Shown piece after piece: positions 241 to 28,462 of a stretch of 60,088 bases of DNA. The position numbers and the translations under genes were made by a program. The stretch is from the IMG/VR virus record IMGVR_UViG_2061766007_003336. One strand, given 5' to 3'. The number at the start of each line of letters is the position of its first letter. Within the stretch, counting starts at the first letter, position 1. Below the pieces are notes generated by a model. The model searched no databases. It was not told the DNA's origin and saw nothing but the letters and a program-made list of their open reading frames with translations. Source of the DNA: an uncultured virus (IMG/VR IMGVR_UViG_2061766007_003336). Taxonomy: Duplodnaviria > Heunggongvirae > Uroviricota > Caudoviricetes.

Positions 241-1409
241 AATACACTGACCAGTTCAGCGACATGACTTTAAGAAATATCGGTGACTTGTACGACCAGA
301 CGACGAGGGACAAGCTTGCAGGGGTCGTTACAATTTCACGTATTCGCAGAAATGCGTTTCATCCCGGAGAGATGATAAGTCAGCTTCTAGGTACGACTGC
401 ACATGCGTTTCCATCGGACAGCCCCGTAATGGTCCGCATTGTTAAGATTTCTGCACAACCAGCAGGGTCAGCGGAAGACGCCGTGATGGAAGCGTTGATG
501 AACGCCCACATGAGCGAAGGCAGGGGCATGTTCAAGGAAATCGGATGCTGCCCGGATGATCCTGCGTTCCGCAGTGCACTCGGCAGACAGCTTCCCTGCG
601 TAATTCCGGAAGAGGGTATGTTCCCGGTGAATAATCCGCTGCAGGCGCTCCTGAGTTTTATTTTCGCTCATGGTCAGAATATGCCTAAGAGACTTATGGA
701 ACGCTTTGACCAGCCGATGATCAGAATGTTCGGCCCCAAGACTTACCGCAAGATGCAGACAATCGTTGATGAAATGTCTGCTGCACAGCTTACTGATGCA
801 AGCAATATTATCGAAGCGGTACCGGAACCGGACGACGGTATGCCGAAAGTTCAGTCGTTTCTTCCGAGACTTATTTTTGAGCTTGTAAAGCTCAATCTCT
901 CCCTCAAAGGTAAACTTGACGAAGTTCTCAGTTATGTAACATCACTTCAGAATGATAAAAAACAGCTCACGACTGCTGACAGAGACATCCAGCGCAGCCT
1001 TATGGACCAGATTACCGAGTTGTCCGGCGGAGAAAGCGAACTTAGGAAAAGGACCGGGGGAAGAACGGCTAAAGATCTTGTTTTCAATACCCAGTTTGGT
1101 AAGGACCAGCCTGAAATCCTTAAAGTCGGTGACTTTTTTATCGACAAGAGCAAACTTGAGACTCTTCCCTATCAGTCAGGCGCAGCTTCATTTTCTTCAT
1201 CCGTAGCCGATGCGATCTATACCAGAGATAAGAAACACATCGATTTCAAAGCCCTTGTCGAGCTGATTGAGCGTCTCAACAAGCTCCTCGAGGATCCCAA
1301 GATCGAGGACGGTGAAAAGAAAGAGATCCAGGACCGTGTGCTGGGCCCGCTGAGACTCTTCCTTGAGCCTGACGGCAGTGTAGTGGATAAGATAGTCGTG
1401 ATGCAGTAG
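237..1409 (+). CDS. hypothetical protein (390 aa)
   Basis: Long ORF with GGAGG RBS, coupled to the upstream gene; no recognised motif. Confidence 0.8.
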   Translation: MKYTDQFSDMTLRNIGDLYDQTTRDKLAGVVTISRIRRNAFHPGEMISQLLGTTAHAFPSDSPVMVRIVKISAQPAGSAEDAVMEALMNAHMSEGRGMFKEIGCCPDDPAFRSALGRQLPCVIPEEGMFPVNNPLQALLSFIFAHGQNMPKRLMERFDQPMIRMFGPKTYRKMQTIVDEMSAAQLTDASNIIEAVPEPDDGMPKVQSFLPRLIFELVKLNLSLKGKLDEVLSYVTSLQNDKKQLTTADRDIQRSLMDQITELSGGESELRKRTGGRTAKDLVFNTQFGKDQPEILKVGDFFIDKSKLETLPYQSGAASFSSSVADAIYTRDKKHIDFKALVELIERLNKLLEDPKIEDGEKKEIQDRVLGPLRLFLEPDGSVVDKIVVMQ

Positions 1410-1416
1410 GTGACGC

Positions 1417-2670
1417 ATGCTGATGCTGCAACCTCCTTCAAAAAGTCTTTGTGAGGCTCTGGCAAAGGACGCTGGGAACTCACAGTTTCCCATAGAAAAG
1501 ATAGGTTTTCTGCTTTATCAGGAATACAGCTATGACCAGTTGCTAACGCTGGAACCTGAGTTTATTCTCGAAAATATGCTGAAAAACACCAGCATCCACC
1601 AGGAGGAAATAGACTCGAATTTTATCACGAAACTGTATGCTCTGGTGGCGATTCTCAATCAGCCGCTGCTGATCACGCAAAGTCTTATGGCTTTTTACAA
1701 TACGGTGCTAGTATGTAACAACCTGCCGTCGGGGGTAACTGATTTCTCAGAAGTACGACTGCTGCCGTCGAGATACCTGTTCAGGACTTTTCTGGCGGTA
1801 AACGCACTTCTCCCGGACGACATGGACTTTGATCAGATGTACCTGCATCCTAATATTAAGAGTTTTATTTATGACTGCTACAAGGCTGACGACGACATGG
1901 TATTAGACCCGTGTTTTGAGTACCTGCAGGACGAATTTATGGCCCACGAATACACCGAGGCCCAGACAGATCAGTTTCTGCCAGTCGTCGAAACCATCAG
2001 AATGAAGCTGATGCCGATCAGGAAGATAGTCATACATTGTATAAAGAATACTTCCGATCCGATTTCTGAGGACGACAGTGATTTGGGCCAGACGTTGTAT
2101 CATACAGGGGATGACCTGCTTCAGCTCAGACTTAGAATGTATCGGGAGCAGTTCATGCTCAGGGAGCGCGAGCTCTTGTCTCTGTATCCTGAAGACAGCT
2201 ATGAAGGGCGTATGGTAAAGATGGCCCTCGGTAATCTGTTGTACGGGTATTTATTCTGGTTTACGGCAGAAAAGATGCGTGACAAGGAGCTTATTCTGGC
2301 GATCGACCTGGCCGCGATCGAATACCGCGGCGGCAGCGCTCTTACTCGTGTAGCGTATACTGTAGCCTCATCACTGCAGCAGACTTCAGAGGGCTCCCGC
2401 ATAGAACTGGTGTATAAGAAGGAAGATTCTGAGGCTCTTGCGGAATTATACGATAAGATGAAATCTGACGACGTGAAAGAGATTTCGCTTGAAAAGCACA
2501 AGCTGGAATCCGAAGGCAACAGCGTTGACGAGATCAATTCATATATTTATGAGAAATACGGACCGCCCAACATTCTGGTAATTCTTACCTCAAAGGCTGA
2601 AGCGGTCGCGTCAAACATAAAATCTTTCAAGGAATCCCACCCCGGGTGGCAGGTCTACATTCTTACTTAG
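1417..2670 (+). CDS. hypothetical protein (417 aa)
   Basis: Long ORF following the previous one; no recognised motif. Confidence 0.8.
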   Translation: MLMLQPPSKSLCEALAKDAGNSQFPIEKIGFLLYQEYSYDQLLTLEPEFILENMLKNTSIHQEEIDSNFITKLYALVAILNQPLLITQSLMAFYNTVLVCNNLPSGVTDFSEVRLLPSRYLFRTFLAVNALLPDDMDFDQMYLHPNIKSFIYDCYKADDDMVLDPCFEYLQDEFMAHEYTEAQTDQFLPVVETIRMKLMPIRKIVIHCIKNTSDPISEDDSDLGQTLYHTGDDLLQLRLRMYREQFMLRERELLSLYPEDSYEGRMVKMALGNLLYGYLFWFTAEKMRDKELILAIDLAAIEYRGGSALTRVAYTVASSLQQTSEGSRIELVYKKEDSEALAELYDKMKSDDVKEISLEKHKLESEGNSVDEINSYIYEKYGPPNILVILTSKAEAVASNIKSFKESHPGWQVYILT

Positions 2671-3211
2671 ATTTAACGAAAAAACTGTCGAAGAGATCTT
2701 CGGCAAATTGTTTCGGAAGTTCAGGCGCATTGATTTTGTAAAGCCATTCGATTTCTGCGGTCATGGCAGCGACAAACCTGTACAGCGTATGTTCAAGGTT
2801 TTCTTTCGTACTCTGACGTACAGCAGTAACCTGTCTCAGGTATTCCCTTAGCGCGTCCAGTATTGACGCCATCGGACCAGTGGTTTCCCTGGCTACCAGC
2901 GCCTGCCACAACGAGCGTTTGTGTTCGAAGCAGTACTGGGCGACGTTTATCGTAAGGGTGATCAGCTTCAGGTCAGGCGACAGCGCAGACGGCAGTTTGG
3001 TTTTCAGAATCTGGCTGATTTCCGCATCTTCGAACTCCTGGGCAGCCGCGAGCATTTCCTGTTTGTTGTCGAAGTAGTGGTACATTGATGGGACTGTAAT
3101 TCCGGCAGCTTTCGCAACTTTTCTCAGAGAAATGGACTCCATTGTTTCTGTACGGAGAAGCGTTCGTATAGCCTCGAAGATACGTTCTTTAGTCGACATT
3201 GCATTTGTCAT
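2663..3211 (-). CDS. TetR/AcrR-family transcriptional regulator
   Basis: N-terminal HTH TKERIFEAIRTLL...ISLRKVAKAAGITVPSMYHYFDNKQEML; GGAGG RBS. Confidence 0.9.
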   Translation of the reverse strand: MTNAMSTKERIFEAIRTLLRTETMESISLRKVAKAAGITVPSMYHYFDNKQEMLAAAQEFEDAEISQILKTKLPSALSPDLKLITLTINVAQYCFEHKRSLWQALVARETTGPMASILDALREYLRQVTAVRQSTKENLEHTLYRFVAAMTAEIEWLYKINAPELPKQFAEDLFDSFFVKSK

Positions 3212-3264
3212 TGTTTACCTCCATTAAAAAGCACTCTTCCGCCACCTAACAGGTGGCTTGATGG

Positions 3265-3293
3265 ATATTATATCGGCGTATAAGCAAAGTCAA
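3265..3293 (-). promoter_or_regulatory. sigma70-like promoter for the tetR gene
   Basis: Minus strand TTGACT-N17-TAATAT; a GCCACCT-aac-AGGTGGC palindrome lies at 3241-3257 in the leader. Confidence 0.5.
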
Positions 3294-3350
3294 GTTTTTA
3301 TCGAAAAAAACTAGCAAGTGAAAAAAGTGGAAAATTTTTTTTAAATTTAC

Positions 3351-3378
3351 TTGACAATCATTTTAGTTAAGTTAATCT
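3351..3378 (+). promoter_or_regulatory. sigma70-like promoter for the methyltransferase operon
   Basis: TTGACA-N16-TAATCT with an AT-rich upstream tract, then a GAGGAGG RBS. Confidence 0.45.
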
Positions 3379-7528: not shown

Positions 7529-8134
7529 ATGACTATTGATTCTGATCGTCAGATCTACACTATAACAGCTGAAGTTAAAGGCAGAGGCGGTGTCTCTGCG
7601 GACGTTAAAGTCGGAATATCGGCAGAGACTGCCACTGGTGAGTTGAGAGAGCTCGACTACCCTGAGCAGTGCAAGTCCCTGCCTGCGTATCTGGCTTTTG
7701 ATAAAATCGTTAAAGCGTTTGATCCGGGGGCCAGAACGGCTGTGGATATTGCAGCAGAGCTCGTTGCAACCACCGTGCTCAAGGCGATGGTGCTGGACAA
7801 TAATGTCATATTTCCGGAGCATCCGACATCAAGGTGGATGACAGCCGTTTTAAGGCGTTATCCCAAGCTGATAGATACAGGAGTGGAAGACGCCAAACAC
7901 CAGTCTGAGGCGAACAAGCATCCTGAAACGGTTACCAGGCTGATAGAATACCTGGCGAAAAACATACTCGATCCTGAGGATATCAGCCGGATAGCGGAAG
8001 AAACGCTGAAGGAAATGTGCAGGAAAGTTCCCTGCGAGGGCAATCGGAAACATAATGTGGGTTACCGGAAAGTTTACAAACCCAGACGGCAGAAAGAGCC
8101 TGGAAAGAAGGAGAAGAAGAATGGGAAAGTATAG
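7529..8134 (+). CDS. hypothetical protein
   Basis: ORF with GAGGTG RBS in operon. Confidence 0.7.
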   Translation: MTIDSDRQIYTITAEVKGRGGVSADVKVGISAETATGELRELDYPEQCKSLPAYLAFDKIVKAFDPGARTAVDIAAELVATTVLKAMVLDNNVIFPEHPTSRWMTAVLRRYPKLIDTGVEDAKHQSEANKHPETVTRLIEYLAKNILDPEDISRIAEETLKEMCRKVPCEGNRKHNVGYRKVYKPRRQKEPGKKEKKNGKV

Positions 8135-8765
8135 AGTAATTATTGAAGTAGAGGACCGTACAAATGCAGAAGCATCTGTAAGAAGATATTTTCAGAAAAT
8201 GGATGACCACGGCAGATGGAAAGCTCTTGACCTCAGCTCATGCGACAGCGTACCGGCGTATGTTATCTATGACCGTGTATCTAGAGGGGTGGGCTGCTTT
8301 AAAACCAGAGACGTCTTAGCTGAGGTGACAGTCATGCTGGTCAGAGCGATTATCGCTGCGATAGGTATCCACAGTCTTGGTGAGGACACAGCCGTAGTTG
8401 CCGACAGACTTGAGCACGAGTTTGCTACAGATATCAGGGAAGTCGTTGAGAAATATATTCGGTATGCCGAAGCCGAGCAATCTCCGTTGATTGTGGCTTT
8501 AATTCAGCATTTTTTTGCTACATTGAATTACCAGGTGCTAGCTGAAATGATTATCGATGAAGCGAAGGAGATGCGAACTGAGTATGGTAACAGGATTGCC
8601 GCCGAGCTTGAAGCTGCCGGGGAGCAGACTGACAGGCCGTCTGATGCAGATCCAGGCCATACACCGGAAGATTATACTATTACTTATCAGGGATACGATG
8701 CTGAAGCTGCTAAAGCGTCTCTGAGTCAGATATCCGGCGGGAAAAAAAAGAGGCTGCGTAAATAA
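8121..8765 (+). CDS. hypothetical protein
   Basis: ORF; start moved to MGKYRV after AAGGAG. Confidence 0.7.
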   Translation: MGKYRVIIEVEDRTNAEASVRRYFQKMDDHGRWKALDLSSCDSVPAYVIYDRVSRGVGCFKTRDVLAEVTVMLVRAIIAAIGIHSLGEDTAVVADRLEHEFATDIREVVEKYIRYAEAEQSPLIVALIQHFFATLNYQVLAEMIIDEAKEMRTEYGNRIAAELEAAGEQTDRPSDADPGHTPEDYTITYQGYDAEAAKASLSQISGGKKKRLRK

Positions 8766-8768
8766 TCA

Positions 8769-9848
8769 TGTCCCCCGCCTCCCATAGGCAGGCAGAGGAC
8801 ATTCATCTGCCGTCAATAATAATAGTGCAGATGTCTGGAACGAGTTCAGGTTCGGCGGTGAGCTGGGTCCGTGAAACCGAAGGATGGAAACAGAGCAAGA
8901 CATCCAGGATACCGGCAGGTGCGGGCCTGAACGCGCCTGCTGGGTATACTGGACGTCGCAGCTCTCCATCCGGAGGCGGATCAGCTCCTCGCCGAACTGA
9001 ATCGTGTAAGCATTTGCACGATGTAATTGTTGTATAATTAACTCCAGCAGCGTTGCTGCCTGAAGACAGATGCCTTGAGCAGGAGAGTTCTACGTTAATA
9101 AAGGAAGCTACTGAATCCCAGGTCAGAGCTTGTACACGGATACCAGGCGAGGCGCAGCCAGCCGGGTAGCCTGTACAGCTATGCCTGGGGGGCAGTGAGC
9201 TGAGTTACTTAGTAGAGAGGACCTCTTATAACGGCAGCATTACCGCCTTAAGACACCTCTCCTGCCCGCTTGTTTAGAATCGATACGGATCCTGAAAGAG
9301 GCTCCTTCAGCTGCCGGATGTGGGCTTTGGAAGAGCATACGGGGCGTTAAAGGAGAAATGCCCCGTGTGCCCGAAGCCCACGCCGGAATGCTGAAGGGTG
9401 CCGCTTCAGGAGAACGAATGAGAATTAAATTCCCATTAACAAACGACGGCTTACTGTCATAAAACAAGTAAATGCCTGATTTCAATAATAACGGCGCCTC
9501 AGGAGTCTCATCCCCGGAGAGGAGCCTACCACGTACTTGTGAATTGATTACGGCGGACGTCGTCTTCGCTGTGAGGGTTGATGCGTCCGAGCGTTGCTGC
9601 TCGGGGTGCGCCGCAGTAAAGGCGAACGCGCGAGCCTGCACGAGAAGCATCACCGGCAGCATGAGAGGTACGCAGAAACTCCTTCACAGTTGAAGATGAC
9701 GCCGACGGTGATCACGATATTCACATACGTGGTCGGCGGAGCCCCGGGGTGAGTCTCCGGAGGAGCTTGGTGAATACAGATATTGAACCTGCAGTCAGTT
9801 GCTGACGTGTATCAGCGAAGTCAGGCGTGAAGAAACTATTTTCTTCAC
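8769..9848 (+). ncRNA. large structured non-coding element (~1.1 kb) of long imperfect rod hairpins; family unknown
   Basis: Hairpins at 8825-9019, 9106-9201, 9290-9411 and 9497-9763. Long-range stems 8787-8798/9256-9266, 8807-8813/9231-9237, 9472-9482/9818-9828. Non-Watson-Crick pairs are mostly G-T on the + strand. No credible CDS. Confidence 0.75.
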
Positions 9849-9862
9849 ATTTACTTATGACA
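9827..9862 (-). promoter_or_regulatory. recurring TGTCATAAGTA motif with adjacent 9-bp hairpin, pointing left into the structured element
   Basis: TACTTATGACA at 9852-9862 is identical to copies at 21895, 31902 and 59408; hairpin GTGAAGAAA/TTTCTTCAC at 9827-9848. Confidence 0.55.
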
Positions 9863-9899
9863 TTTTTCCACCGCTGGGGTAAGTTTTTTTATTTTTTTC

Positions 9900-9944
9900 T
9901 TGACAACCTAACATTTATTATTAAGGTACCTAACAGACTGTTAG
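9900..9944 (+). promoter_or_regulatory. promoter and operator-like palindrome upstream of the DNA polymerase
   Basis: TTGACA (9900-9905), TAAGGT (9922-9927), perfect palindrome CTAACAG-A-CTGTTAG (9930-9944). Confidence 0.5.
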
Positions 9945-9988
9945 TCATGGACAGGCTGCAGTCGGACAGAAAAGAACAGGAGGTTGAT

Positions 9989-12979
9989 ATGGAACAGTAC
10001 GCACTTTTTGAAGATTACCCTGAATACGTTCAGACCATGATGTATGAGATTACCGGCGATGCAGAGCTGTATAAGTACTGCCCTGTACGTGAAGGCAGAC
10101 TGAAGATGGTTCTGGGAAACAAGGGCATGAGCTACACTGATGCCGAAGAGCAGATTGTCAGGATCAGGTCTTATTTTACTAAAACCGTGAAAGCGTCTTT
10201 GAGAGAAGACACTATCGTGATTTTTCCGGCGTATTTCTCTGCCAAATCAGGACGACCGAATATGACCTGCGCCGAGAAGCACTTTTCTTTATTTACGAAT
10301 TACATCAGCTGTATGACAAGCACGGACGGGGAGAGACCGAGGATCCTGTGTATGCGATTCAACTATGCGGCACAGCGGGACCCTTACACCGGCAATTTTC
10401 CGAGTCGCAAAGGACGTAGTGCATCCGGCAACGAAATTCCTATTGAAGACGAGACTATTACGGCTAAGCACCTTACTGTGATAGCGTCAGGCATCAAATA
10501 CTGGCTTAAGTCACATCCTGAGATTAAAAACCTCGTTTCACCCTCACTGGAGTTACTGTCAGTTTTGTTTCCTGATTCAGGACTTCCGGGATCATTCAAA
10601 GGAGCTGCCCTCCGTTTATTTACAGGAGCATTGGCGTTCGGAGCAGGCGACAACCTGGAGCACAGGGATTATACGTTTACCGTAATGCCGAGTATGCTCA
10701 AGTACGTTAAATACGGCGACGGCATGCTGGATGTTACCGCCGACATTCTTTCTTACATATTTCATCCGCAGGAACAGCCGGAGGTCAAGAGCGTAATAAT
10801 TAACGATATGAAGGCAGTCGAGCAGATCAAAGCTAAGGCTAAGGCTGCAGGACTTCCCATCTCGCTGGACTTTGAGACGACAGGTCTCAATCCCAGATAT
10901 TACGATCAGCACATTATCTCCTGCCACCTGTCGAACGGCAGGGTAGCCTGGGGGTTTCTGGTAAACCACCCGTGCTATCCCGAGACTAACGGGATGCCGA
11001 TGGTAGAGGCTCTGATGGATGATCCTGAAATGACACTGATTATCCAGAATGCTGTGTATGATACCAAGTGGTATATGGCAATGACAGGAAAGTTCCCCAA
11101 GGCTAAGATATATGATACCATGCTTCTTGACCACTGGTTAAATGAGACGCTTGGATCCACCTCTTTGAAAGCCGGCATGGGTGGAGCCTACAGCATGGAC
11201 CTGCAGATCCCGCGCTACCTGCATTATTCATCACATAAGCCGATGCTTGACGAGGCCATGGATAAGATTGAGTTTGTCAATCCGTACAAGGCCCCGTCAG
11301 CAGCCGAGATCGAAGCATTTACTGTAAAGGAGGTACGTGAACTGGTGCAGCTGGTCAATGACCCTGAACGGCGTGAGCCCAATTCAGGAAAGTATGCAGG
11401 TCTCAGCTATGATATGCTGTTTGATTACGGTAACAGTGATGCTGCGGCGACCTGGCGCATATTTGATAAGCAGCGCGAAATGATCACAAAGCAGTGCGGT
11501 GAGAAGTGGCCGAGAGTTATCGAGGAGCTCATGCCGAAACTGATTTACAATACGGCAAGAATGGAGATAACCGGTGCACCGCTGAATTATGAAATGATCA
11601 TTGAAAAGATCAAGGACGTCAATTTGTCCGCAAAGCAGTGCAAGGACAGGGTCGAAGAAGCTACACACTTTCAGTTTGATCTTAATTCACCCAAGCAGCT
11701 TCTTGACTACCTTACCGAGCATGAGAAAATTGATCCTGAGATGCTTTACAGTGTTAAGAAGGATGACATCTGCGTTGACATAGAAACACTCAGCCGGTTT
11801 GAGAAGACGATTCCGTGGATGCCGGATTTTCTTTCCTACAAGAAGGCTATGAAGTTGAAAAACACCTATCTGATCCCGATAGTTTTGAAAAGTCACTGCG
11901 GTGTTCTGTATTTCGGTATCGATCTTACAGGAACTGTTACCGGCAGACTTGCCAGCCGAAACCCCAACATTCAGAATCTGCCCAAGGCGCTCAAGATATG
12001 TGGTAAGAAAGTAGGACTCAAAGAGGTTATACAGGCTCCGGAAGGCCATATCTTCTCTGATATGGATTTGTCATCTGCTGAGGTTAAAGTTCTTACGGTC
12101 GTATGTCCTGATGAGAAGCTGGTCGACGTTTTGAAACGCGGTCTTGACGCTCATTCCTACACCGCGTCTCTGGTATCACAGACTTCGCCGAATCCTAAGT
12201 CCTACGAGGAGATTTATCACTCTCATCAGAAGGCAGACCACGTCATTGACGAACCGATGACGGAAGAAGACGGCGTGAATGAAGCATTAAGGAAGAACGC
12301 AAAACGAGTTACGTTCGGGGCTATTTACCGGATAGGGAAGCAAGGTCTGGCAACGCAACTTGTGTATAAATACCAGGACAATCCTGAGCTCAGCTTTAAG
12401 CAGAATCAGCTTGAGCGTCAGAAAGTAGGGGAAGTTATCGCTCAGGATCTGCTGGACAAGCTGTTCCACGAGGTTTATCCGACACTTGGAAAATCGTTTG
12501 AGCGGTCGGACTTCAACGTCTTCAACAGGTATTACGGAGAGAGTATCTTCGGACGGCGCAGACGCTATACGCATTCGATTATCCCGATGGTGAACCATCT
12601 GTTCCTCGGTACAGGGTTGTACGCTAAAGACGGGGCCTCAACACTTAGTCTGGCGGACTGTATGACGTTTATTCCGTCACAGCGCTGTTTCAGGCAGAAT
12701 GTCAATTTTGAGGTTCAGTCGCCAACTTCCGATTATATGCAGTTCTATATCAACTATATAATTACGCAGTGCAGTGATATTCCTGACTTTAATTTTCATT
12801 TGACTGTCCACGACAGTGCTTTGTTCTCGTTTGTGGATACAAAAGAAAACTACGACAAATTCAAAAAAGTCTGCGACTACGGTATGGACGTATACCTGAA
12901 GTCACTGGATGACAGACTGCCGGTAACGATCGGTTACGGTATGGATACGGCTTACAATTATTGCAAGATAGGAGGCTAA
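9989..12979 (+). CDS. polA: family A DNA polymerase with 3'-5' exonuclease and an extra N-terminal domain
   Basis: SLDFETTG (ExoI), QNAVYD (ExoII), YGNSDA (ExoIII), TVTGRLASRNPNIQN, DLSSAEVK (motif A), RKNAKRVTFGAIY (B), TVHDS (C). Start placed at the ATG after AGGAGG rather than the track's 9827. Confidence 0.95.
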   Translation: MEQYALFEDYPEYVQTMMYEITGDAELYKYCPVREGRLKMVLGNKGMSYTDAEEQIVRIRSYFTKTVKASLREDTIVIFPAYFSAKSGRPNMTCAEKHFSLFTNYISCMTSTDGERPRILCMRFNYAAQRDPYTGNFPSRKGRSASGNEIPIEDETITAKHLTVIASGIKYWLKSHPEIKNLVSPSLELLSVLFPDSGLPGSFKGAALRLFTGALAFGAGDNLEHRDYTFTVMPSMLKYVKYGDGMLDVTADILSYIFHPQEQPEVKSVIINDMKAVEQIKAKAKAAGLPISLDFETTGLNPRYYDQHIISCHLSNGRVAWGFLVNHPCYPETNGMPMVEALMDDPEMTLIIQNAVYDTKWYMAMTGKFPKAKIYDTMLLDHWLNETLGSTSLKAGMGGAYSMDLQIPRYLHYSSHKPMLDEAMDKIEFVNPYKAPSAAEIEAFTVKEVRELVQLVNDPERREPNSGKYAGLSYDMLFDYGNSDAAATWRIFDKQREMITKQCGEKWPRVIEELMPKLIYNTARMEITGAPLNYEMIIEKIKDVNLSAKQCKDRVEEATHFQFDLNSPKQLLDYLTEHEKIDPEMLYSVKKDDICVDIETLSRFEKTIPWMPDFLSYKKAMKLKNTYLIPIVLKSHCGVLYFGIDLTGTVTGRLASRNPNIQNLPKALKICGKKVGLKEVIQAPEGHIFSDMDLSSAEVKVLTVVCPDEKLVDVLKRGLDAHSYTASLVSQTSPNPKSYEEIYHSHQKADHVIDEPMTEEDGVNEALRKNAKRVTFGAIYRIGKQGLATQLVYKYQDNPELSFKQNQLERQKVGEVIAQDLLDKLFHEVYPTLGKSFERSDFNVFNRYYGESIFGRRRRYTHSIIPMVNHLFLGTGLYAKDGASTLSLADCMTFIPSQRCFRQNVNFEVQSPTSDYMQFYINYIITQCSDIPDFNFHLTVHDSALFSFVDTKENYDKFKKVCDYGMDVYLKSLDDRLPVTIGYGMDTAYNYCKIGG

Positions 12980-19910: not shown

Positions 19911-20052
19911 GTTTCATTTCTTCGACGATCTCCCCGACTTTCTGTTTGATCAGATGTGCCAGTTTGACGCCGTGTCTTTCAAAATGTTTGAACTTCTCCA
20001 TCAGCTCAAGATGATCGAGCCAGTCATTGAGTTCCTGTTTACTCAGTTTCAT
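19879..20052 (-). CDS. small hypothetical protein (57 aa)
   Basis: MKLSKQELNDWLDHL..., AAGGAG RBS; fills the gap between neighbours. Confidence 0.55.
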   Translation of the reverse strand: MKLSKQELNDWLDHLELMEKFKHFERHGVKLAHLIKQKVGEIVEEMKHDEEEHDEQG

Positions 20053-20572
20053 TGTCTTTCTCCTTTACTAATATGGTTGATAATAATGAGTCTACGGGCT
20101 CCGTTGCTACATAGAACGGACCCGATGTCGGAGCTTTGTACCACTTGCCGCGGCATGCTGATACCGGGCTTGCCCAGAACCAGTCTACGCCAAGCAGCAT
20201 ATCAGCCAGTTCCCTGTTGGGCTTGCGGGACTTGGCCCCTTCCCGTCCTATGGCTATAGCTTCTGGCCTTGTCGGCAGTCTCCATCTCCCGAGCGGATTC
20301 TGGGCGGCCACCGCTTCATGGGCTGCGTGCTTTCCTTTCAGAAGCACGATCTCGGATACCTTACCGAGATGTCTTGCTGGTTTGTCCAGCTTGACATGTT
20401 TGAAAATATCTGAAGCCTGGAACGCACCGGAGAGCTCTGCTCCGTTTTCATTTGAGTACAAAGTCTGCAGCGCTTCCTGGGCAGTTGAGCGCAGTTCCCT
20501 GATCTCCTCCCTGATTTCCTCCATGCGGCTAACGATGTCCTTCAGCATAGAGTATGCCTCTGCTTTATTCAT
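20039..20572 (-). CDS. coiled coil plus DUF1566/Lcl-like domain protein
   Basis: N-terminal coiled coil, WRLPTRPEA and WFWAS motifs; start moved to MNKAEAY. Confidence 0.55.
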   Translation of the reverse strand: MNKAEAYSMLKDIVSRMEEIREEIRELRSTAQEALQTLYSNENGAELSGAFQASDIFKHVKLDKPARHLGKVSEIVLLKGKHAAHEAVAAQNPLGRWRLPTRPEAIAIGREGAKSRKPNRELADMLLGVDWFWASPVSACRGKWYKAPTSGPFYVATEPVDSLLSTILVKEKDNETE

Positions 20573-21092
20573 TTTTTTCCTCCCACGTGTATAGAGTTGC
20601 CAGCATACATGCAAAAGACTGCTGCTCTCGGTCAAACGGAACCCTACGGTATCCTGCGCTTTTTTCAAACCATCTGGGATACGCTGTCAGGACATCAGTA
20701 AATTTCAGGATCATATTGACAGGGCTTACAGCAAACTGCTTAAGACACTCTGTGAAATGATCTGAAATGACTTTTGCCTGGGCATTCCAGGCTTTGGTCA
20801 GGCTGCGGTCAGGTGTCGTGTCATAGTCATAAATACGACAGTAAGTCTGTTGAATGTACTCATATACCCAGACGCTCAGTGGTTCGTCGCAGCTCCATCT
20901 GCCGACTGCTTCTATAAGACACTGCAGTTTGATGAGAATCGGAGCCTTAGATCCCAGGATCAGTTCGGACATAAGCCTGTTATCGTTCATTTCCGTAAGC
21001 AGGAGCTGACAGCAGGTCTCAAGGTCGATAGGATTTGCGTCCAGTTTACTGTTAATCGGTGTTAGTTGTAATTCCATTTTTCCCCTCCTCAT
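20565..21092 (-). CDS. hypothetical protein
   Basis: ORF in an overlapping gene run. Confidence 0.65.
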   Translation of the reverse strand: MRRGKMELQLTPINSKLDANPIDLETCCQLLLTEMNDNRLMSELILGSKAPILIKLQCLIEAVGRWSCDEPLSVWVYEYIQQTYCRIYDYDTTPDRSLTKAWNAQAKVISDHFTECLKQFAVSPVNMILKFTDVLTAYPRWFEKSAGYRRVPFDREQQSFACMLATLYTWEEKNE

Positions 21093-21595
21093 AGCCTGGT
21101 TTCGTTAACCAAAACAACTGTTCTGATGTTTTTCAAGGGATTGACAGCATGACATCCCTCTTCCGCATCGACAACGATTCTGAGACCTGTCTTCGTGCAT
21201 TCTCCGGTCCATATACCGTCGCCTTTACTGAAGGAAGAGTCTCCTTGTTCTAACGCTAACTTAAGAATGGTCTCGGCTTCGACCGAAGACGGCAGCCTCC
21301 AGTTTCCCTGAGCAACTTTAAGGGCTCTGTCCAGCCCTGCACGGTATTTGTAGATTCCGAAGATTTTAACTCTGGACAAGCCGCTGGTGTGCTCAGGTAC
21401 AGGGTACACTTTTCCGTCCTGACCGGGACGAAAGGGTCCTGCTACGGTGGTCGGGCGCAGCTTATCGGCAAAGGTTTGGAGCTCTGCGAGTTCCTTCTTG
21501 AGGCTGGTCATACGATCGTCCATGTCCCCGATCAGTTCTGTTACAGCATTTATGCGCTGCTGCAGCTGATTATAGACTTTTTCAGTTACTGGCAT
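21089..21595 (-). CDS. coiled coil plus DUF1566/Lcl-like domain protein (likely paralog of 20039-20572)
   Basis: WRLPSSVEA and GIWTG motifs; start moved to MPVTEK after GGAGG. Confidence 0.55.
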   Translation of the reverse strand: MPVTEKVYNQLQQRINAVTELIGDMDDRMTSLKKELAELQTFADKLRPTTVAGPFRPGQDGKVYPVPEHTSGLSRVKIFGIYKYRAGLDRALKVAQGNWRLPSSVEAETILKLALEQGDSSFSKGDGIWTGECTKTGLRIVVDAEEGCHAVNPLKNIRTVVLVNETRL

Positions 21596-21857
21596 GACGC
21601 GCCTCCAGCTCCGCCGTGAGAGCATTGATATCCGCCGGTAAGGGTTTTGACTGCCCTTCGCCTTCAAAGATCCGCCTGACAGCGTGAGTCAGTTCGACTT
21701 CCATAATAGTGATCATCTGCTCAAGCGCGTCGTTTTTGCCGAACAGATTATACACTCCCTGTTTCAGCATTTTACGCTGATTTTTCACGGCAGTTTTCAC
21801 CGCCTGCTGAAACTGCTTTTTCAGCTCCTTTTCTCTCTTGTCCATGACTTCCTCCAT
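21582..21857 (-). CDS. hypothetical protein, first gene of a leftward operon
   Basis: ORF with RBS downstream of the recurring promoter motif. Confidence 0.65.
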   Translation of the reverse strand: MEEVMDKREKELKKQFQQAVKTAVKNQRKMLKQGVYNLFGKNDALEQMITIMEVELTHAVRRIFEGEGQSKPLPADINALTAELEARHASN

Positions 21858-21873
21858 AAGTAATTGATAATTC

Positions 21874-21905
21874 GGGAAAGTCTTTCCCTACATATACTTA
21901 TGACA
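21874..21905 (-). promoter_or_regulatory. recurring TGTCATAAGTA motif with hairpin
   Basis: TACTTATGACA at 21895-21905; GGGAAA/TTTCCC hairpin at 21874-21888. Confidence 0.6.
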
Positions 21906-21908
21906 AAT

Positions 21909-22310
21909 CTAAACGATTTCGAGTGTGAATTGACTAATACCCTTCAGACTGTCCAGAAATTGCTGCATAGCTTTTTTAGACTCAGTCACCATGAAGCTTT
22001 TGCCGTAGGGTCGGATATCTTTCCCTACAAGAATACAGCCCCTGGTACTCGAGGTGAAGTTGCCCTGGTGGAACAGGATGCCTGCCCTGTCTTTTACGTC
22101 GCAGACTATAAATGTCTCCCCGAACTTTTTGCTCCAGGTACGTTCACAGCGGTATATCCCGGGGGGAATGCAGCTGCAGCTCGGCTTGTTGTCGTTCCAC
22201 GGGAGTTCGAGAGTACTGAACTCACGGGATACCCCGTCGGCGTCAGTGTAGGCAAGCGTGCCTGGTGTACAGGTCTGAGAGCAGGTATTTCTTGTAAGGA
22301 TAATCCTCAT
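21909..22310 (-). CDS. DUF5675-family protein, candidate endolysin
   Basis: TLELPWNDN...CIPPGIY...RAGILFHQGN...TRGCILVG; coupled to the spanin genes. Confidence 0.75.
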   Translation of the reverse strand: MRIILTRNTCSQTCTPGTLAYTDADGVSREFSTLELPWNDNKPSCSCIPPGIYRCERTWSKKFGETFIVCDVKDRAGILFHQGNFTSSTRGCILVGKDIRPYGKSFMVTESKKAMQQFLDSLKGISQFTLEIV

Positions 22311-22594
22311 TCGTCCGGGTCCTTGTGCTGTGCGGTTCCGCGGAGACACCTGATAACGGCTTTAAGTTTTTGGACGTAACTGTTCTGCTTTACGATATTA
22401 TCAAGCAGTTTACGGAGCTTGACGTTCTCAGGATCTTCCGCATTGATAACTTCAAATACCGGAGGTTCAGGATCCAGACACAGTTCATGTGTCAGGGGAG
22501 GCAGCTCAGGTTTACTCTGAGCAGTGCCCGAACAGTTCGTTAAGACGGGGAACGATAGAATCAAAATCCCCAGCATCCATACATACCGCTTCAT
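22307..22594 (-). CDS. outer-membrane lipoprotein, o-spanin (Rz1-like)
   Basis: Lipoprotein signal ending VLTNC, Pro-rich body; overlaps the end of the i-spanin gene. Confidence 0.7.
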   Translation of the reverse strand: MKRYVWMLGILILSFPVLTNCSGTAQSKPELPPLTHELCLDPEPPVFEVINAEDPENVKLRKLLDNIVKQNSYVQKLKAVIRCLRGTAQHKDPDE

Positions 22595-22871
22595 TGGTAT
22601 CTAGCTCCTGTTTTTCGTTGTTCGTGATCGTATTGATGGTTTTAATGTACAGTTTGACGGTTTCGGCATCTTTGATAACTAAGGCCATTTTTTCGTTAAG
22701 AACTGCGATTTCGGCATTTTTTGTTTCGATTTCAGCGTTGAGCCTGTCAATTTTGTCTGACATCCGTTCAAGAGTAAACCAGAGGATAAAAAAAACCAAA
22801 GCTGTCAGAATGATAATAATTTCTTTGCGGTGATCATAAAGATACCCCCATACCGCAAGACCGGCAAGCAT
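22512..22871 (-). CDS. inner-membrane i-spanin (Rz-like)
   Basis: N-terminal TM then coiled coil with a C-terminal Cys; overlapped by the lipoprotein gene. Confidence 0.7.
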   Translation of the reverse strand: MLAGLAVWGYLYDHRKEIIIILTALVFFILWFTLERMSDKIDRLNAEIETKNAEIAVLNEKMALVIKDAETVKLYIKTINTITNNEKQELDTNEAVCMDAGDFDSIVPRLNELFGHCSE

Positions 22872-22872
22872 A

Positions 22873-23304
22873 TTACTGCCTCCCGTATACTTCGTTGAGT
22901 TTGGCTATCAGATAAGGACTGACGAATGGCGCAGCTGCTCCGCCAATACCGGCACCGAGAAGGCCGCCGCCGATTGCTCCGGATATGCCGCCATTGATGA
23001 GAAGTCCGAGACCGGCTCCTGTAATACCCCCGAACCCAGCTCCGTAAAGTGCAGCGGTTTCGGGGGTAGGAATCTGAAACGGTACCGGAGCTGCAGGAGC
23101 ACTGGGAACTGTTTCAGCCGGCATAACGGGAACTGTTCCCGGGAGAGTGTACTCTCCCGAGAAGTCAAAACCCTGCGGAACAGTAGTATTGATGAACAGT
23201 TCCGGACTGATTTCCTGCGGGGTGCGTTCCGCCTGACGCCGCCACAAACGCGGTAGTACGAAAGGCAGCGGACAGAACATGTTTTTTACTCCGTATTGGA
23301 TCAA
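22873..23304 (-). CDS. glycine-zipper membrane or virion protein
   Basis: GxxxG repeats (GAGFGGITGAGLG...GGGLLGAGIGG). Confidence 0.6.
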   Translation of the reverse strand: MIQYGVKNMFCPLPFVLPRLWRRQAERTPQEISPELFINTTVPQGFDFSGEYTLPGTVPVMPAETVPSAPAAPVPFQIPTPETAALYGAGFGGITGAGLGLLINGGISGAIGGGLLGAGIGGAAAPFVSPYLIAKLNEVYGRQ

Positions 23305-23314
23305 CTAAAACTCC

Positions 23315-25642
23315 TCAATCATTGCGACGAATAAATTTCGCCAGGGTGTATATAATTCCTGCGGCAAAATCGTGTACAGTAAGAGACTTTATATAATCCG
23401 ACCACGATTCTCTGCTAAGAACGAGGGAGTTTTTATTTTTGCCGTAGATATACGGAGTAGTATCAAACGTTGCTCCCTCATTGCATAGGATCAAGTGGTC
23501 CGCTTTAGCCTTCTCGAATACGTCGACAGCACCTGAGGTCGTAAAATAAGCTTCTGCCTGTGAGGTATAATGGAACGTAGCACCCCACCTGCCAGTGGTT
23601 TCATTATGCGTCCATGTAAGGTTACCGTTAACAAAATCTCCCGTTAAGAATGTTCCCGAGAAATACGGATCCCATCCTTTCCAGGAGAGGATGCAGGCGG
23701 TTTTGCTGTTAAGCATGTCTTTGCTCTCGGGAGTAAAATCAGGCTCAGCGTCTACAGGAGTTATTTCTGCTGCCAAGCCGACGGTAGTAGTAGCGTTAGT
23801 GTAGAATACGCTGGCAGCTTCGAAAGATACAGTTGACATTGAGCCGTCCTGAGGCATATACTCAAACTGCATACCTGGTGCTGCCATCTGAGTAACAGTC
23901 TGAAACTCATATCTTTTAGCCTCGCCACCATACATTTCCGGGGCGTACTCTTCTGATGCCCATGCGTCAGCAACCGTGCTTACCTGATTGTAATCAACCC
24001 AACGGTCTTCGGCTTCTGTCTTAGTAAACTTAGCCAGGACGAATGCTCTTGAAGACATGGTCGGGTTACTGAAGTCACAGAATGTAGAGATCTCTGCTGC
24101 TGTGTCTGTAGAGTTCTTGGCGAAGAGAAATTTCCAGTCCCCTGACCCCTCCACTTTCTTTATCTCAGTGCACTGATAGGACATGTCCATACCCCCTTCC
24201 TGTTCCCTGGTGTATCCGTTGAGGCAGGTAAGGTTGAGAGAAGCTTCCGCCAGTTGGTTGGCTATCGTTACCGGCAGCCACTTAACATCATTGCTGCCGT
24301 TTACAAATTTAGCCAGATCGGCAAGGCGGCTAGTAGCATCGGAAGACGGAATGTTCATTCTGATACTCTGGAGCTCTTCATCCGGCATAATCCTCTTACT
24401 AAATTCTGTCCAGCCGCACTCCCTGCTCGGGTCAACCTCTTCTCTGGTGCCGGTTAGCGGAGCGTAGAAAGTAGTATAATAACTGTCTGCAGTGATGCTC
24501 TCGTATGCTCCGAAAGCTAGTTTAATAACGTTGGGGAACAAAGGTCCGGAGTATGGAAGAGATATGCCTGAAAGAGCTACATTACGTTCGTCTGTTATTG
24601 TGTTATTACGGAAAGTCTTAACCATATATGTTTTATAGGTGTCGACATAATCGTCAGTCGGATTCCGGAAATATCTGATCTGATCTCCGAATTTGGTTGG
24701 GTTAAGCATATCGCCGGTCCAACGTACCTGGTTGAGTTTATCAACAGGAACAGAACCGTCAGACGTATCTCCAGGCTGGAAGAATATCTCACCTACGGAG
24801 CCGCCGGTCCACCCGTAAGTATAGGTAACCACAGGCGCCCTTGTAGGTTCGGTATCTGAAGGAGTATCATTGTCTTTACTCGGGTCATAGTGAGCAACGT
24901 GATGGAAATTGCGTTCAGGATACTCTTCCTTAACCCCGAAGTCCATAACACCTACTGTGTCTGGATCTGTACCTATGCCGTAAAAGTAGCACGGCAGCTG
25001 CGGATTCCTGCTGCTGACTGTCGCATTTCCCTGCGCATCGAATGAAAGTCTGAGGTCGTCTTTGCTACCCAGAAAGCCTGCACGCCACAATAAAAGATTG
25101 AGCCATTTGAACATACCCGGATCTGTTTCTGTGCCGAGATCGAGGATACCTTGTGCGGCTGCCGCCTGGCATTTGCTGAAGAAACTGGTTTCAGAGTCTG
25201 TATATACGTAGTCATCCCAGTCCTTGTCCGCGAAATTACCTTGTGCTATGTCCGTATAAATCCTGTCGAAATCAGCTATATGGTTGTTCATAAGATAGTT
25301 ATAAGCCAGATTAAGCATAGTAGCCAGTTCTGTAGGCACAGCCTTATCCTCGCCGGTTTTAACTGTGTACTCGTTGGGATTTGATTTATATCCTGTTATC
25401 GACTCAAACAGAGTTCTGAATACTCTACCGGCAGCTTTGCCCGTCATGTATGTCATCCAGTCTTTGATTTCACTTACAGTCATCTTTCTTGTAACAGCAT
25501 GACTGAAGTCAGTAACTTTCTCGGGACTGTCTTCATTAGTAGCGTCACCGTCTACGTCAATGATAGGCATGATGTCCTGATTATTGGGCATATTACCCTG
25601 ATAATCTTCAAGTTCCCAGATGGGTTTTGCTTTAATAGTCAT
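23315..25642 (-). CDS. large acidic protein (775 aa), probably virion-associated
   Basis: Long ORF with GGAGG RBS in the structural region; no catalytic motif seen. Confidence 0.75.
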   Translation of the reverse strand: MTIKAKPIWELEDYQGNMPNNQDIMPIIDVDGDATNEDSPEKVTDFSHAVTRKMTVSEIKDWMTYMTGKAAGRVFRTLFESITGYKSNPNEYTVKTGEDKAVPTELATMLNLAYNYLMNNHIADFDRIYTDIAQGNFADKDWDDYVYTDSETSFFSKCQAAAAQGILDLGTETDPGMFKWLNLLLWRAGFLGSKDDLRLSFDAQGNATVSSRNPQLPCYFYGIGTDPDTVGVMDFGVKEEYPERNFHHVAHYDPSKDNDTPSDTEPTRAPVVTYTYGWTGGSVGEIFFQPGDTSDGSVPVDKLNQVRWTGDMLNPTKFGDQIRYFRNPTDDYVDTYKTYMVKTFRNNTITDERNVALSGISLPYSGPLFPNVIKLAFGAYESITADSYYTTFYAPLTGTREEVDPSRECGWTEFSKRIMPDEELQSIRMNIPSSDATSRLADLAKFVNGSNDVKWLPVTIANQLAEASLNLTCLNGYTREQEGGMDMSYQCTEIKKVEGSGDWKFLFAKNSTDTAAEISTFCDFSNPTMSSRAFVLAKFTKTEAEDRWVDYNQVSTVADAWASEEYAPEMYGGEAKRYEFQTVTQMAAPGMQFEYMPQDGSMSTVSFEAASVFYTNATTTVGLAAEITPVDAEPDFTPESKDMLNSKTACILSWKGWDPYFSGTFLTGDFVNGNLTWTHNETTGRWGATFHYTSQAEAYFTTSGAVDVFEKAKADHLILCNEGATFDTTPYIYGKNKNSLVLSRESWSDYIKSLTVHDFAAGIIYTLAKFIRRND

Positions 25643-25722
25643 ATCGGTGTCCTCCGAAAAAAAACGTTTAATTTCTACAGGAACGAACCTGCTCTGTTAT
25701 TATATTATTGTAGGCGAGGAAA

Positions 25723-26475
25723 TCAATCTAATTGTTCTTGAAGGTTCTGGCCGCGCAGAATCGTTCGGGCGTTGAAGTCTCCCGGAATAGCTACGGAGCT
25801 GATGTCAACGAAGTAACCGATTCCGTTCATCATATAGACTGGAACGCCGTCGACGACGGAGCCGACCATGGTTGCAAGATGTTCGCATCTGTCACTCGGA
25901 ATACGGTTGTGGTGTCCGCATACGGAGCAGAACTCACCGGATTCGGGCGGAAGGTCAGGTGCATAGATCCTGTAGCCCATACTGACCAGAAGGCATTTGT
26001 TTCCTGCGATGCGCAGACATTCTCTGGTAGCAAGACCCCAGTCGTATCTGATAAGGATCTCGAGCCGTTTATACTTTTCGTTGTAATGAGCATCGATAAT
26101 ATCTCCGATGGCGTTGTCTTTTGATCTGTACTGATGGTTCCTCGAAGCGATGGCTTTTTTCGCGAAGCTGTGCTGCGTTACCGGAAGTGTTCCCTGCTCC
26201 GAAATTTTAGCGAAAGGGCGCGAGTACAGCGCATCGCCGTTGTCATTCGGACCGAAATACTCCCACGGGGTAGCAGCAAGCACAAGAACTACTTCGTCTT
26301 TAGGATGTTTTTTTGCAGCAAGACCTTTGGCCATCAGAGCATCATAATATTCCCGGTCTTCTTCAGGAATACCTGAAGCAAGCTTGTCGTTATTCTTATT
26401 GTCCAGCCTGAAAGCCAGGGCGGTGTCAATGAATTTGGTGTCATCATATTTGAAATCTTTGATCGGATCATCCAT
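25723..26475 (-). CDS. prohead (capsid maturation) protease-like protein with zinc-binding insert
   Basis: NDNGDA...RNH...AIGDIIDA...VSMG...CSVCG...CEH...DISSV.IPGD pattern of large-phage head proteases. Confidence 0.7.
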   Translation of the reverse strand: MDDPIKDFKYDDTKFIDTALAFRLDNKNNDKLASGIPEEDREYYDALMAKGLAAKKHPKDEVVLVLAATPWEYFGPNDNGDALYSRPFAKISEQGTLPVTQHSFAKKAIASRNHQYRSKDNAIGDIIDAHYNEKYKRLEILIRYDWGLATRECLRIAGNKCLLVSMGYRIYAPDLPPESGEFCSVCGHHNRIPSDRCEHLATMVGSVVDGVPVYMMNGIGYFVDISSVAIPGDFNARTILRGQNLQEQLD

Positions 26476-26477
26476 TG

Positions 26478-27290: not shown

Positions 27291-27309
27291 AATATCCTCC
27301 CGTGCTTGC

Positions 27310-27840
27310 TTATCCGAGGGACTGCTGAGCACGCGCCATATTGTAAACGTAGTCAGCTCTAAGTCCGGTTGAGTCGGTCAGAAGTGCGTTCTGAATTGCG
27401 GGAAGAACTGCCGAAGGAGCCTTTCTGACGAGATCAGGAGCGATTTTACCGACCTGGGAATAGAGAGCCCTGGCCTTAGCTTCGCCCATAGCCTGAACCG
27501 ACGGATCGTTTTTGATAAGGTCAAATTTTTTGCTGAGCTTGTACTGATCGTACGCTTTGCCCGGCATATCGAAAAGGGAGTTACCGAGGTCAGTGACTCT
27601 GTTCTTTACAAGATCAATAGGCGTGTCGAACATAGCCTCGTTAATCTTCTCCTGACCCATTACATAGCGTCTGGTTCCGCCGCTCTGCGCCCACGCCTTA
27701 GCTTCACCCTGCGCGTTCCACGTCGGTTTGTTAAGAGCAAGCCATCTTTGTTTGGCGAGATCGAAGATGTTGTTTGAAAGTGCATAAATGGCAGCTGCTC
27801 CGCCTAAGCCGCCGAGAAGAGTAGTAGCTGCACCAGCCAT
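27310..27840 (-). CDS. hypothetical protein, probably virion-associated
   Basis: Start moved to MAGAATT after AGGAGG. Confidence 0.7.
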   Translation of the reverse strand: MAGAATTLLGGLGGAAAIYALSNNIFDLAKQRWLALNKPTWNAQGEAKAWAQSGGTRRYVMGQEKINEAMFDTPIDLVKNRVTDLGNSLFDMPGKAYDQYKLSKKFDLIKNDPSVQAMGEAKARALYSQVGKIAPDLVRKAPSAVLPAIQNALLTDSTGLRADYVYNMARAQQSLG

Positions 27841-27925
27841 GGTAAAACCTCCTATATAAAAAAACAAAAAAAACATACGTACAAAACCGGCCTCAGCCGG
27901 TCCGTATTATAACCGCTGGTTCAAC

Positions 27926-28141: not shown

Positions 28142-28150
28142 GGCTGTCTC

Positions 28151-28354: not shown

Positions 28355-28432
28355 GGTTTCCTCCGTAAAAAACACATACCTATCTATAATAAGCGGAAAA
28401 AAAACAAACGCAAAAAAAGCAGAGCTGAACCT

Positions 28433-28457: not shown

Positions 28458-28462
28458 GAATA

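Follow-up and report, generated by a model that had tools for sequence, protein, structure and literature searches.

Few very large structured RNAs are known from phages, and several known systems bear comparison with the element reported here. GOLLD and ROOL adopt a compact, multi-junction fold. ColE1 RNA II and the T7 primary origin are examples of transcription-primed origins of replication. The T4 late promoter, TATAAATA, and the T7-type promoters are short, invariant signals that consist of a -10 element only or are recognized by a phage polymerase. Retrons produce hairpin-rich msDNA, and no msDNA is known to approach 1 kb. Set beside these systems, the locus analyzed here combines a long array of hairpins, a promoter-like motif with no gene behind it, and a position directly upstream of a phage DNA polymerase gene. 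Our preferred reading, to which we assign a probability of roughly 0.45, is that it holds a new, cassette-like accessory gene on the minus strand, encoding a structured phage RNA of ~1.1 kb.

A noncoding gap upstream of polA

The DNA derives from an uncultivated rumen phage. We analyzed a stretch of 60 kb (60,088 nt, hereafter the window) within a large phage-like genome; this DNA or close variants of it are present in bovine and sheep gut sequencing runs from 12 studies. On the plus strand, genes for a C-5 methylase, an SNF2-type helicase, a thymidylate kinase, and three unknown proteins lead up to an open reading frame (ORF) at 8055-8765, whose stop codon forms the left border of a gap. Directly to the right of the gap lies polA (9947-12979, plus strand), encoding a family-A DNA polymerase whose best match among 50,697 isolated phages is to T5-like phages at ~24% identity, such that no close relative is found in that set. 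The gap (8766-9946, 1181 nt) thus separates two plus-strand replication genes and contains no credible gene. Its last part, 9885-9946, carries a T-rich tract and a TTGACA element (9890-9895) that together resemble a sigma-70 promoter and probably serve polA itself; this leaves a module proper of 1119 nt (8766-9884). The polA end of the gap is AT-rich (tract 9863-9946), with a G+C fraction of 0.385 at 9800-9999. No tRNA was found.

The longest ORF in the gap (9240-9662, minus strand) could encode 140 amino acids. In sequencing run X5, this frame is broken by three indels (two nucleotides inserted at 9268/9269, one deleted at 9468, and one inserted at 9661). A single homologue was recovered among 5.8 billion proteins: P0016, a protein of 201 amino acids on a 16.5-kb contig, which uses another start and follows a path through three different frames of the window. 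We found no homologue of an 89-aa ORF that lies over the leftmost hairpin. The module is thereby shown to lack a conserved ORF, as the reading frame is not kept in relatives.

Start-like and stop-like signals bracket the gap on the minus strand

At 9852-9862, facing left, lies an exact copy of the motif TGTCATAAGTA. Three nucleotides further on, a perfect 9-bp hairpin (9848-9827) is predicted to form the 5′ end of a minus-strand RNA. Both the copy and its hairpin had been noted in a preliminary description of this DNA made from the sequence alone, and both are confirmed here. The window contains four copies, all of them exact and all on the minus strand (9862, 21905, 31912, and 59418), and no variant with one mismatch was found. 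With up to one mismatch allowed, 0.66 matches would be expected and 1 of 100 shuffles reached four; at two mismatches, the count (16, with 13 expected) falls to the chance level.

The positions of the other copies speak for a function in transcription. All three lie 49-64 nt upstream of a ribosome-binding site (GGAGG) and ATG of a minus-strand gene, namely the ORF at 21582-21857, a pentapeptide-repeat ORF at 31307-31837 that precedes a gene for a reverse transcriptase (RT)-like protein, and the ORF at 58430-59353. A leftward, promoter-like role, proposed earlier, is thus supported; of these three copies, the preliminary description had noted only the one upstream of the RT operon. Short hairpins follow the motif at these three copies as well. 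Two copies abut the stop codon of the preceding minus-strand gene, which leaves no room for other signals. The four copies further share five A-rich nucleotides upstream and NNTG downstream, and have no -35 element in common. We infer that TGTCATAAGTA is a candidate phage-specific, invariant promoter. Given its 11 invariant bases and the lack of a common -35 element, it may be read by a phage sigma factor or a phage RNA polymerase; a gene for either was not identified within the 60-kb window. Only the copy at 9852-9862 has no gene downstream; it points into the noncoding gap. The operons behind the motif have an anti-defense flavor, encoding a Qnr-like pentapeptide protein, the RT-like enzyme, and a PD-(D/E)XK nuclease.

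A shorter word, TGTCATAA, does face rightward at 9455-9462 on the plus strand, and had been taken to make convergent motifs with the leftward one. We judge it a chance match: besides the four full motifs it has three hits, with 1.6 expected in shuffles, and it is not conserved. One relative carries an inferred T>C change at 9455, and X5 has its 1-nt deletion in the same region, at 9468, such that both readable lineages are changed there.

At the opposite end of the gap, an unbroken 13-bp stem with two further apical pairs (8802-8768, minus strand) is followed by GAUUAUUUA, giving a hairpin and U-tract that together span 8802-8758. This element, which a simple terminator scan did not list, abuts the stop codon of the plus-strand ORF 8055-8765. 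A G+C-rich stem followed by a U-tract, the layout of an intrinsic terminator, is found here on the minus strand, and the U-rich tail follows the hairpin on that strand only. Of its 15 pairs on the minus strand, 2 are G-U, which on the plus strand become A-C mismatches. Accordingly, the 41-nt piece 8766-8806 folds at -26.9 kcal/mol on the minus strand vs. -16.5 kcal/mol on the plus strand. A longer, 76-nt piece (8755-8830) reaches -30.4 kcal/mol on the minus strand (z = -4.9, with none of 200 shuffles as good), vs. z = -2.85 on the plus strand. The element is a candidate terminator that, by its predicted fold, would work on the minus strand only, and no plus-strand terminator was found after the stop codon at 8765. 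As the start-like and the stop-like signal lie on the same strand and bracket the gap, they delimit a putative minus-strand unit of ~1.09 kb.

Four rods and their strand preference

A sliding scan with 200-nt segments identified 8800-9500 as the most structured part of the 60 kb; it accounts for 5 of the 12 segments with z < -3.5 and for the lowest values of all. Folding the gap revealed a string of four rod-like hairpins, whose minimum free energies (MFE, in kcal/mol) we measured against dinucleotide shuffles. Rod A (8814-9036, ~220 nt) folds at -119.1 on the plus and -101.7 on the minus strand (z = -10.3 and -8.7). Rod B (9064-9275), the weakest and partly branched, folds at -84.2 and -90.1 (z = -4.2 and -4.7). 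For rod C (9283-9411, ~129 nt), region 9280-9415 gives -85.7 and -69.4 (z = -10.8 and -8.9), and for rod D, an imperfect hairpin of ~275 nt (9493-9767), region 9490-9780 gives -154.5 and -134.5 (z = -9.8 and -8.1). The rods show no sequence likeness to each other or, the motif apart, to the rest of the window, and we rejected the idea that they are repeated mobile hairpins on this ground.

The preliminary description had seen a paradox here: a promoter pointing left, and wobble pairs indicating that the fold belongs to the plus strand. The wobble asymmetry holds for rods A and C, which have 6 vs. 1 (8820-9025) and 5 vs. 1 (9280-9415) G-U pairs in the MFE structure on the plus and minus strand, respectively, or 11 vs. 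2 jointly. It fails elsewhere, with 6 vs. 5 in rod D (9490-9780, the domain that the same description had delimited), 4 vs. 7 in rod B, 0 vs. 2 in the end hairpin (8766-8806), and 27 vs. 28 over the whole gap. In terms of energy, the plus strand is favored in rods A, C, and D, with a raw advantage of 14-20 kcal/mol that falls to 7-12 kcal/mol once the shuffle means are subtracted; folds computed with DNA parameters also prefer the plus strand (e.g., -77.8 vs. -70.7 for rod D). Over the whole 1181-nt gap, the plus strand folds at -540.1 and the minus strand at -518.8 kcal/mol. About half of this difference, 21 kcal/mol in 540, reflects base composition, as the plus strand keeps an advantage over the minus strand when both are shuffled.

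Overall, two or three rods do prefer the plus strand, though modestly, and the strand paradox is weak: it arose mostly from base composition and from a wobble count confined to two of the four rods, and the three strongest rods still reach z values near -8 to -9 on the minus strand. As either strand yields a strongly folded rod array, no cDNA is needed to reconcile the signals, and the exotic explanation that had been offered for them can be dispensed with.

Natural variants spare the folds

We used natural variation to ask whether these folds are maintained, drawing on contigs from read runs (40 of 136 differences were used) and on the P0016 lineage. X5 provides a 13.3-kb contig across the whole compared stretch, with 92 differences (~97% identity), and X20, a sheep-gut run, carries 9 of the 10 X5 differences listed in rod A at 8897-8998. 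Three of these ten fall in loops and three rearrange the apex; the other four exchange Watson-Crick and G-U pairing, three of them on the plus strand and one (8998) on the minus strand. Together, the ten natural substitutions keep or improve the fold, shifting the energy from -115.3 to -120.0 kcal/mol on the plus strand (-4.7) and from -101.7 to -107.7 kcal/mol on the minus strand (-6.0). When substitutions of these types were placed at random within the same 110 nt, the energy changed by +11.8 ± 6.0 (plus) and +9.5 ± 6.1 kcal/mol (minus), and only a fraction of 0.005 (plus) or 0.015 (minus) of 200 random sets were as good as the natural one.

For the P0016 lineage, we deduced 21 base differences from amino-acid changes that have a single possible one-base explanation. 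Silent changes are invisible to this procedure, so that it underestimates compensation. Rod C changed by -0.8 (plus) and -7.1 kcal/mol (minus), vs. +12.1 and +7.6 for random sets (fractions as good, 0.013 and 0.007 of 150). Rod D changed by -0.1 and -1.3, vs. +11.6 and +7.6 (0.027 and 0.047 of 150). Two short hairpins adjacent to the motif showed no such sparing in this lineage. Among paired variant sites kept through G-U, a hand count gave five on the plus and two on the minus strand, a difference that is not significant. Rods A, C, and D hence avoid fold-breaking changes in two or three lineages, which supports selection on the hairpins, without naming the strand. Spared folds together with frames broken by indels support a conserved, structured, noncoding unit.

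A hint of expression

Among the sequencing runs that carry the module, X20 is the only RNA library. We placed its contigs on 3001 nt around the module and found four (8809-9052, 9270-9411, 9400-9835, and 10197-10386), with word depths of 6.4, 3.7, 13.3, and 3.0, respectively, which as contig depths cannot rank genes. The contigs cover ~810 of the 1119 nt of the module (~72%), vs. 190 of 1882 flanking nt (~10%), and coverage of the 1 kb left of the module is zero. The contig at 8809-9052 covers rod A and that at 9270-9411 covers rod C. The rightmost module contig reaches to 9835, 13 nt short of the predicted minus-strand start, whereas DNA contigs of runs X6 and X7 extend to 9874 and 9865; on the left, coverage stops at 8809, short of the proposed terminator. 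Contigs carry no strand, start, or end, and an RNA library may hold DNA, so the presence of this stretch in X20 does no more than hint at an abundant RNA from the module. Regions that no contig covers, such as rod B in X20, count neither for nor against expression.

A probable accessory cassette and a second unit of the same layout

Searching with a polA alignment recovered one viral and eight metagenome loci (L001-L009) whose polA is 28-68% identical to that of the window. In all nine, genes are packed right up to polA, with neither gap nor rods before it, and blastn of the gap against these loci gave chance hits only. The relative with 68% identity (L002) has a similar TTGACA promoter before polA and different genes to its left. 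Closer relatives, with polA at 76-99% identity (P0001-P0005), are known as proteins alone. A single polA query against viral contigs and the polA alignment against genome contigs gave no match. One contig of run X6 matches the window rightwards from 9885 and is unlike it to the left, which places the right end of the module at ~9884/9885, just before the polA promoter. The site before polA therefore looks like an exchange place for accessory cassettes, with the module as one such accessory.

We found no nucleotide match to the gap in 50,697 phage records, and exact 24-mers from rods C and A had no hits in viral or in genome contigs. None of 4227 Rfam families matched the window at its gathering score; when the threshold was relaxed to E values up to 5 for 8600-10050, only three chance-level hits emerged (two miRNA precursor families and one lncRNA region).

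The minus strand carries another unit built in this way, at 34153-33705. It begins with a variant motif, TGTCATAAAAAAATG, at 34153, which shares 13 of 15 bases with the copy at 9862, continues with ~440 structured, G+C-rich nucleotides (-187.2 kcal/mol on the minus strand, z = -4.2, vs. -163.3 on the plus strand), and ends in a terminator with a 14-bp stem and T9 (33736-33705), the strongest minus-strand terminator in 20001-40000. Like the rod unit, it is flanked by plus-strand genes, and it has no Rfam match. Noncoding units that run on the minus strand amid plus-strand genes thus seem to recur in this phage, and this lends weight to the minus-strand reading of the unit upstream of polA.

The RT-like gene and the idea of a retron-like cDNA

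The preliminary description had further suggested that a minus-strand RNA of this region is reverse-transcribed in trans, in the manner of an oversized retron. We therefore examined the RT-like protein (653 aa; 29359-31320, minus strand), whose gene follows the pentapeptide ORF behind a 64-nt leader. RVT_1 and retron RT models match residues ~249-358 only, far below their curated cut-offs. Against NF038233, the protein scored 45.8 bits (cut-off 235), so that it does not pass this curated model of the retron RT clade, and the PADLOC model RT_II-A matched the same short stretch (E = 1.2e-8). A search of PDB gave no sequence match. Motifs A (D338) and B (Q471, G472) are canonical, and motif C reads YSDN in place of YxDD; S517, D518, and N519 are invariant in all 24 aligned family members. 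The family is small, with 34 representative clusters at E <= 1e-3 among 1.84 billion, and it is probably undescribed and confined to phages. The listings and abstracts surveyed on phage RTs with noncoding RNAs, rumen phage RTs, YSDN, and T5-type origins with inverted repeats contained nothing relevant.

In retrons, the noncoding RNA lies directly upstream of the RT; here, the rod array lies 20 kb from the RT-like gene. A distant relative of 183 kb, G001, encodes an RT-like homologue, also with YSDN, and a scan of its whole length found neither use of the motif nor a rod array. Retron noncoding RNAs also carry a1/a2 inverted repeats at their ends and a priming guanosine; the only end-to-end complementarity found in the gap (8842-8853 with 9785-9796; 12 nt, 83%) is not above chance. 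No template/variable repeat pair of a diversity-generating retroelement was found in the window. The sole repeat near the RT-like gene is a coding tandem repeat (28673-28852); a structured signal at 28351-28700, tried as a candidate for the RT's own noncoding RNA, was rejected, since it is this coding repeat. With retron models far below cut-off, a distance of 20 kb, and a relative that has the gene without the rods, the retron-like proposal finds no support.

Weighing the explanations

Under our preferred reading, transcription would start near 9848, directed by the promoter-like motif at 9862-9852, and run leftward, antisense to the direction of the flanking replication genes. The RNA would consist of the short 5′ hairpin followed by rods D, C, B, and A, and would end at the hairpin and U-tract at 8802-8758, giving a length of ~1.09 kb. 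It may act as an RNA, possibly as a stable, largely double-stranded platform or decoy for a dsRNA-binding factor, and would be expressed alongside the operons that the motif heads elsewhere (RT-like/pentapeptide and nuclease/HD). Transcription against the plus-strand genes may further limit read-through into polA, a gene with a promoter of its own. The main challenge to this minus-strand RNA gene comes from the plus strand. The rods could be a structured part of the replication-gene transcript, formed by read-through from 8055-8765 or as a long polA leader and serving as processing or stability sites, with the minus-strand motif being incidental or producing a regulatory antisense RNA. The better plus-strand folds of rods A, C, and D, the G-U excess of rods A and C, the five plus-compatible vs. 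two minus-compatible variant sites of the hand count, and a stop codon at 8765 that no plus-strand terminator follows all fit such a transcript. However, polA has its own TTGACA promoter at 9890, as does the polA of L002; the only plus-strand promoter-like site (8796-8823) scores 9/12, which is the chance level; and the X20 contig begins at 8809, upstream of any start that this site could provide. The end hairpin (8768-8802) and rod B prefer the minus strand, and the wobbles of the whole gap are balanced at 27 vs. 28. We consider this explanation unlikely. The two strands could also be used together, the plus strand by read-through and the minus strand from the motif, as a sense/antisense pair for mutual or polA control in the manner of ColE1 RNA I/RNA II. 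This would accommodate minus-strand signals alongside a plus-leaning fold, but no plus-strand start or stop signal rises above chance, and a perfect duplex of 1 kb would make intramolecular rods pointless, yet the rods are conserved; such a pair seems quite improbable.

The location invites a different thought, namely that an orphan promoter within the replication module, directly upstream of polA and next to an AT-rich tract (9863-9946), primes replication by making a structured primer RNA or by opening the DNA. Nevertheless, the GC skew tracks gene orientation, with no turn at this place, DnaA-box matches (13, with 11.6 expected) are at the chance level, and the module is missing at this place in relatives and replaced left of 9885 in a variant contig. 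Absence or replacement in relatives fits an accessory cassette rather than a core origin, and we hold an origin to be very unlikely. The plus-strand element, the sense/antisense pair, and the origin are the main competitors of our reading. We are more doubtful still that the rods are DNA-level palindromes without an RNA function, such as protein-binding or recombination sites or remnants of hairpin-forming mobile DNA. Both strands do keep their folds about equally in variants, and G-T and A-C appositions are balanced overall, but the rods resemble neither one another nor the rest of the window in sequence, transcription signals bracket the module, and the module appears in RNA-library contigs. 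Last among the alternatives is reverse transcription of the minus-strand RNA in trans by the RT-like enzyme into a plus-strand, multi-hairpin ssDNA, resembling an oversized msDNA. The same motif heads the RT-like operon and the rod unit, the best (albeit weak) family matches of the RT-like protein are to retron RTs, and DNA-parameter folds prefer the plus strand. Against this, the motif heads two further operons, so that being under its control does not single out the RT; matches of the protein to RT models are confined to residues 249-358, far below cut-off, with YSDN rather than YxDD; only a 64-nt leader, and no msr/msd-like element, adjoins the RT-like gene; the plus-strand preference is weak and partly compositional; and G001 has the RT-like gene without the rod array. 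This explanation strikes us as extremely unlikely. A broader version, in which a YSDN-type RT-like polymerase uses the rod array in trans as its template or partner RNA and the pair makes a multi-hairpin cDNA or an RNA-protein particle early in infection to counter host defense, is a long shot as well; were it true, it would represent a retron-like principle in the service of a phage, with template and enzyme unlinked in the genome.

Returning to the minus-strand RNA gene, its cassette-like behavior and a promoter word shared with anti-defense-flavored operons would make it a candidate RNA-based factor for host manipulation or counter-defense.

Comparison with known systems

With retron msr-msd elements, the module shares a hairpin-rich noncoding unit that is apparently under the same control as an RT-like gene, and hairpins that would fold as DNA too. 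It differs in lying 20 kb from that gene rather than adjoining it and in its size of ~1.1 kb with four rods, and the RT-like protein, unlike retron RTs, fails the model cut-offs and carries YSDN in motif C. The likeness to ColE1 RNA II/RNA I resides in a structured RNA of several hundred nucleotides, an orphan promoter beside family-A polymerase functions, and possible antisense partners. Unlike in ColE1, there is no origin signature here, the module is dispensable at this place in relatives, and no second promoter for a counter-transcript was found.

The motif TGTCATAAGTA resembles T4 late and T7-type promoters in being a short, perfectly conserved word that has no common -35 element and precedes several operons; its sequence differs from theirs, and the 60 kb yielded no sigma factor or polymerase that might read it. 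As a candidate promoter word, it could be used for mapping regulation in this phage group.

The closest parallels are GOLLD and ROOL. Like them, the module would be a phage-borne gene from a gut or rumen habitat for a long (>500 nt), highly structured RNA that encodes no protein; unlike them, it matches no Rfam family and forms a string of four separate rods. If it is a true RNA gene, it would represent a new architecture among the few very large phage RNAs, with four conserved rods of 130-275 nt arrayed in a transcript of ~1.1 kb.

A second candidate noncoding RNA and other structured stretches

Beyond its exact copies, the 11-nt promoter-like motif occurs as a variant, TGTCATAAAAAAATG, at the head of a minus-strand unit at 33705-34153. 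Downstream of this variant lie approximately 440 structured nucleotides, followed by a strong minus-strand terminator (33736-33705). Folding of the unit gave -187.2 on the minus strand (z -4.2) and -163.3 on the plus strand, and no Rfam family matched it. A plus-strand ORF (33720-34121) overlaps the unit; it has no match to any family and may be a spurious gene. With its variant motif, structured body and terminator, this unit is a candidate second noncoding RNA.

Additional stretches drew attention between 52 and 55 kb. The noncoding gap at 54479-54851 contains nested inverted repeats (54579-54602 with 54741-54764, and 54593-54609 with 54612-54628) and two promoter-like sites of the TTGACA type on the plus strand. 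Unusually good plus-strand folding (z -3.6 to -4.0) was found at 52251-52650 and 53351-53550, in or near gaps separating minus-strand ORFs. Within the ORF at 28463-29266, tandem repeats of 51-nt period (28673-28852) account for the apparent structure signal there.

A boundary at the polA promoter

The family-A DNA polymerase gene, polA, has its own TTGACA-type promoter with an upstream T-rich tract (9885-9946), which is kept in L002 (1380-1494), a locus whose polA is 68% identical. Since the DNA to the left of this promoter is completely different between the two loci, and a contig from sequencing run X6 diverges from the window exactly at 9885, this boundary looks like a point of cassette exchange.

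The RT-like operon and its protein family

The RT-like operon opens with a gene for a pentapeptide-repeat protein (31307-31837, minus strand), whose resemblance to Qnr-type DNA mimics is weak and below the cut-off. In the divergent region between this operon and the plus-strand genes starting at 32066, a G+C-rich 11-bp hairpin (31939-31964) sits immediately upstream, in the minus-strand sense, of the motif copy at 31912.

The RT-like protein itself (29359-31320, minus strand; L010, a locus carrying a relative, 1330-3369) belongs to a small family, with 34 representative clusters among 1.84 billion proteins. Our literature search found no paper in which "YSDN" appears together with "reverse transcriptase". 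The family retains motifs A and B, and its motif C reads YSDN rather than YxDD, invariantly in all 24 aligned members.
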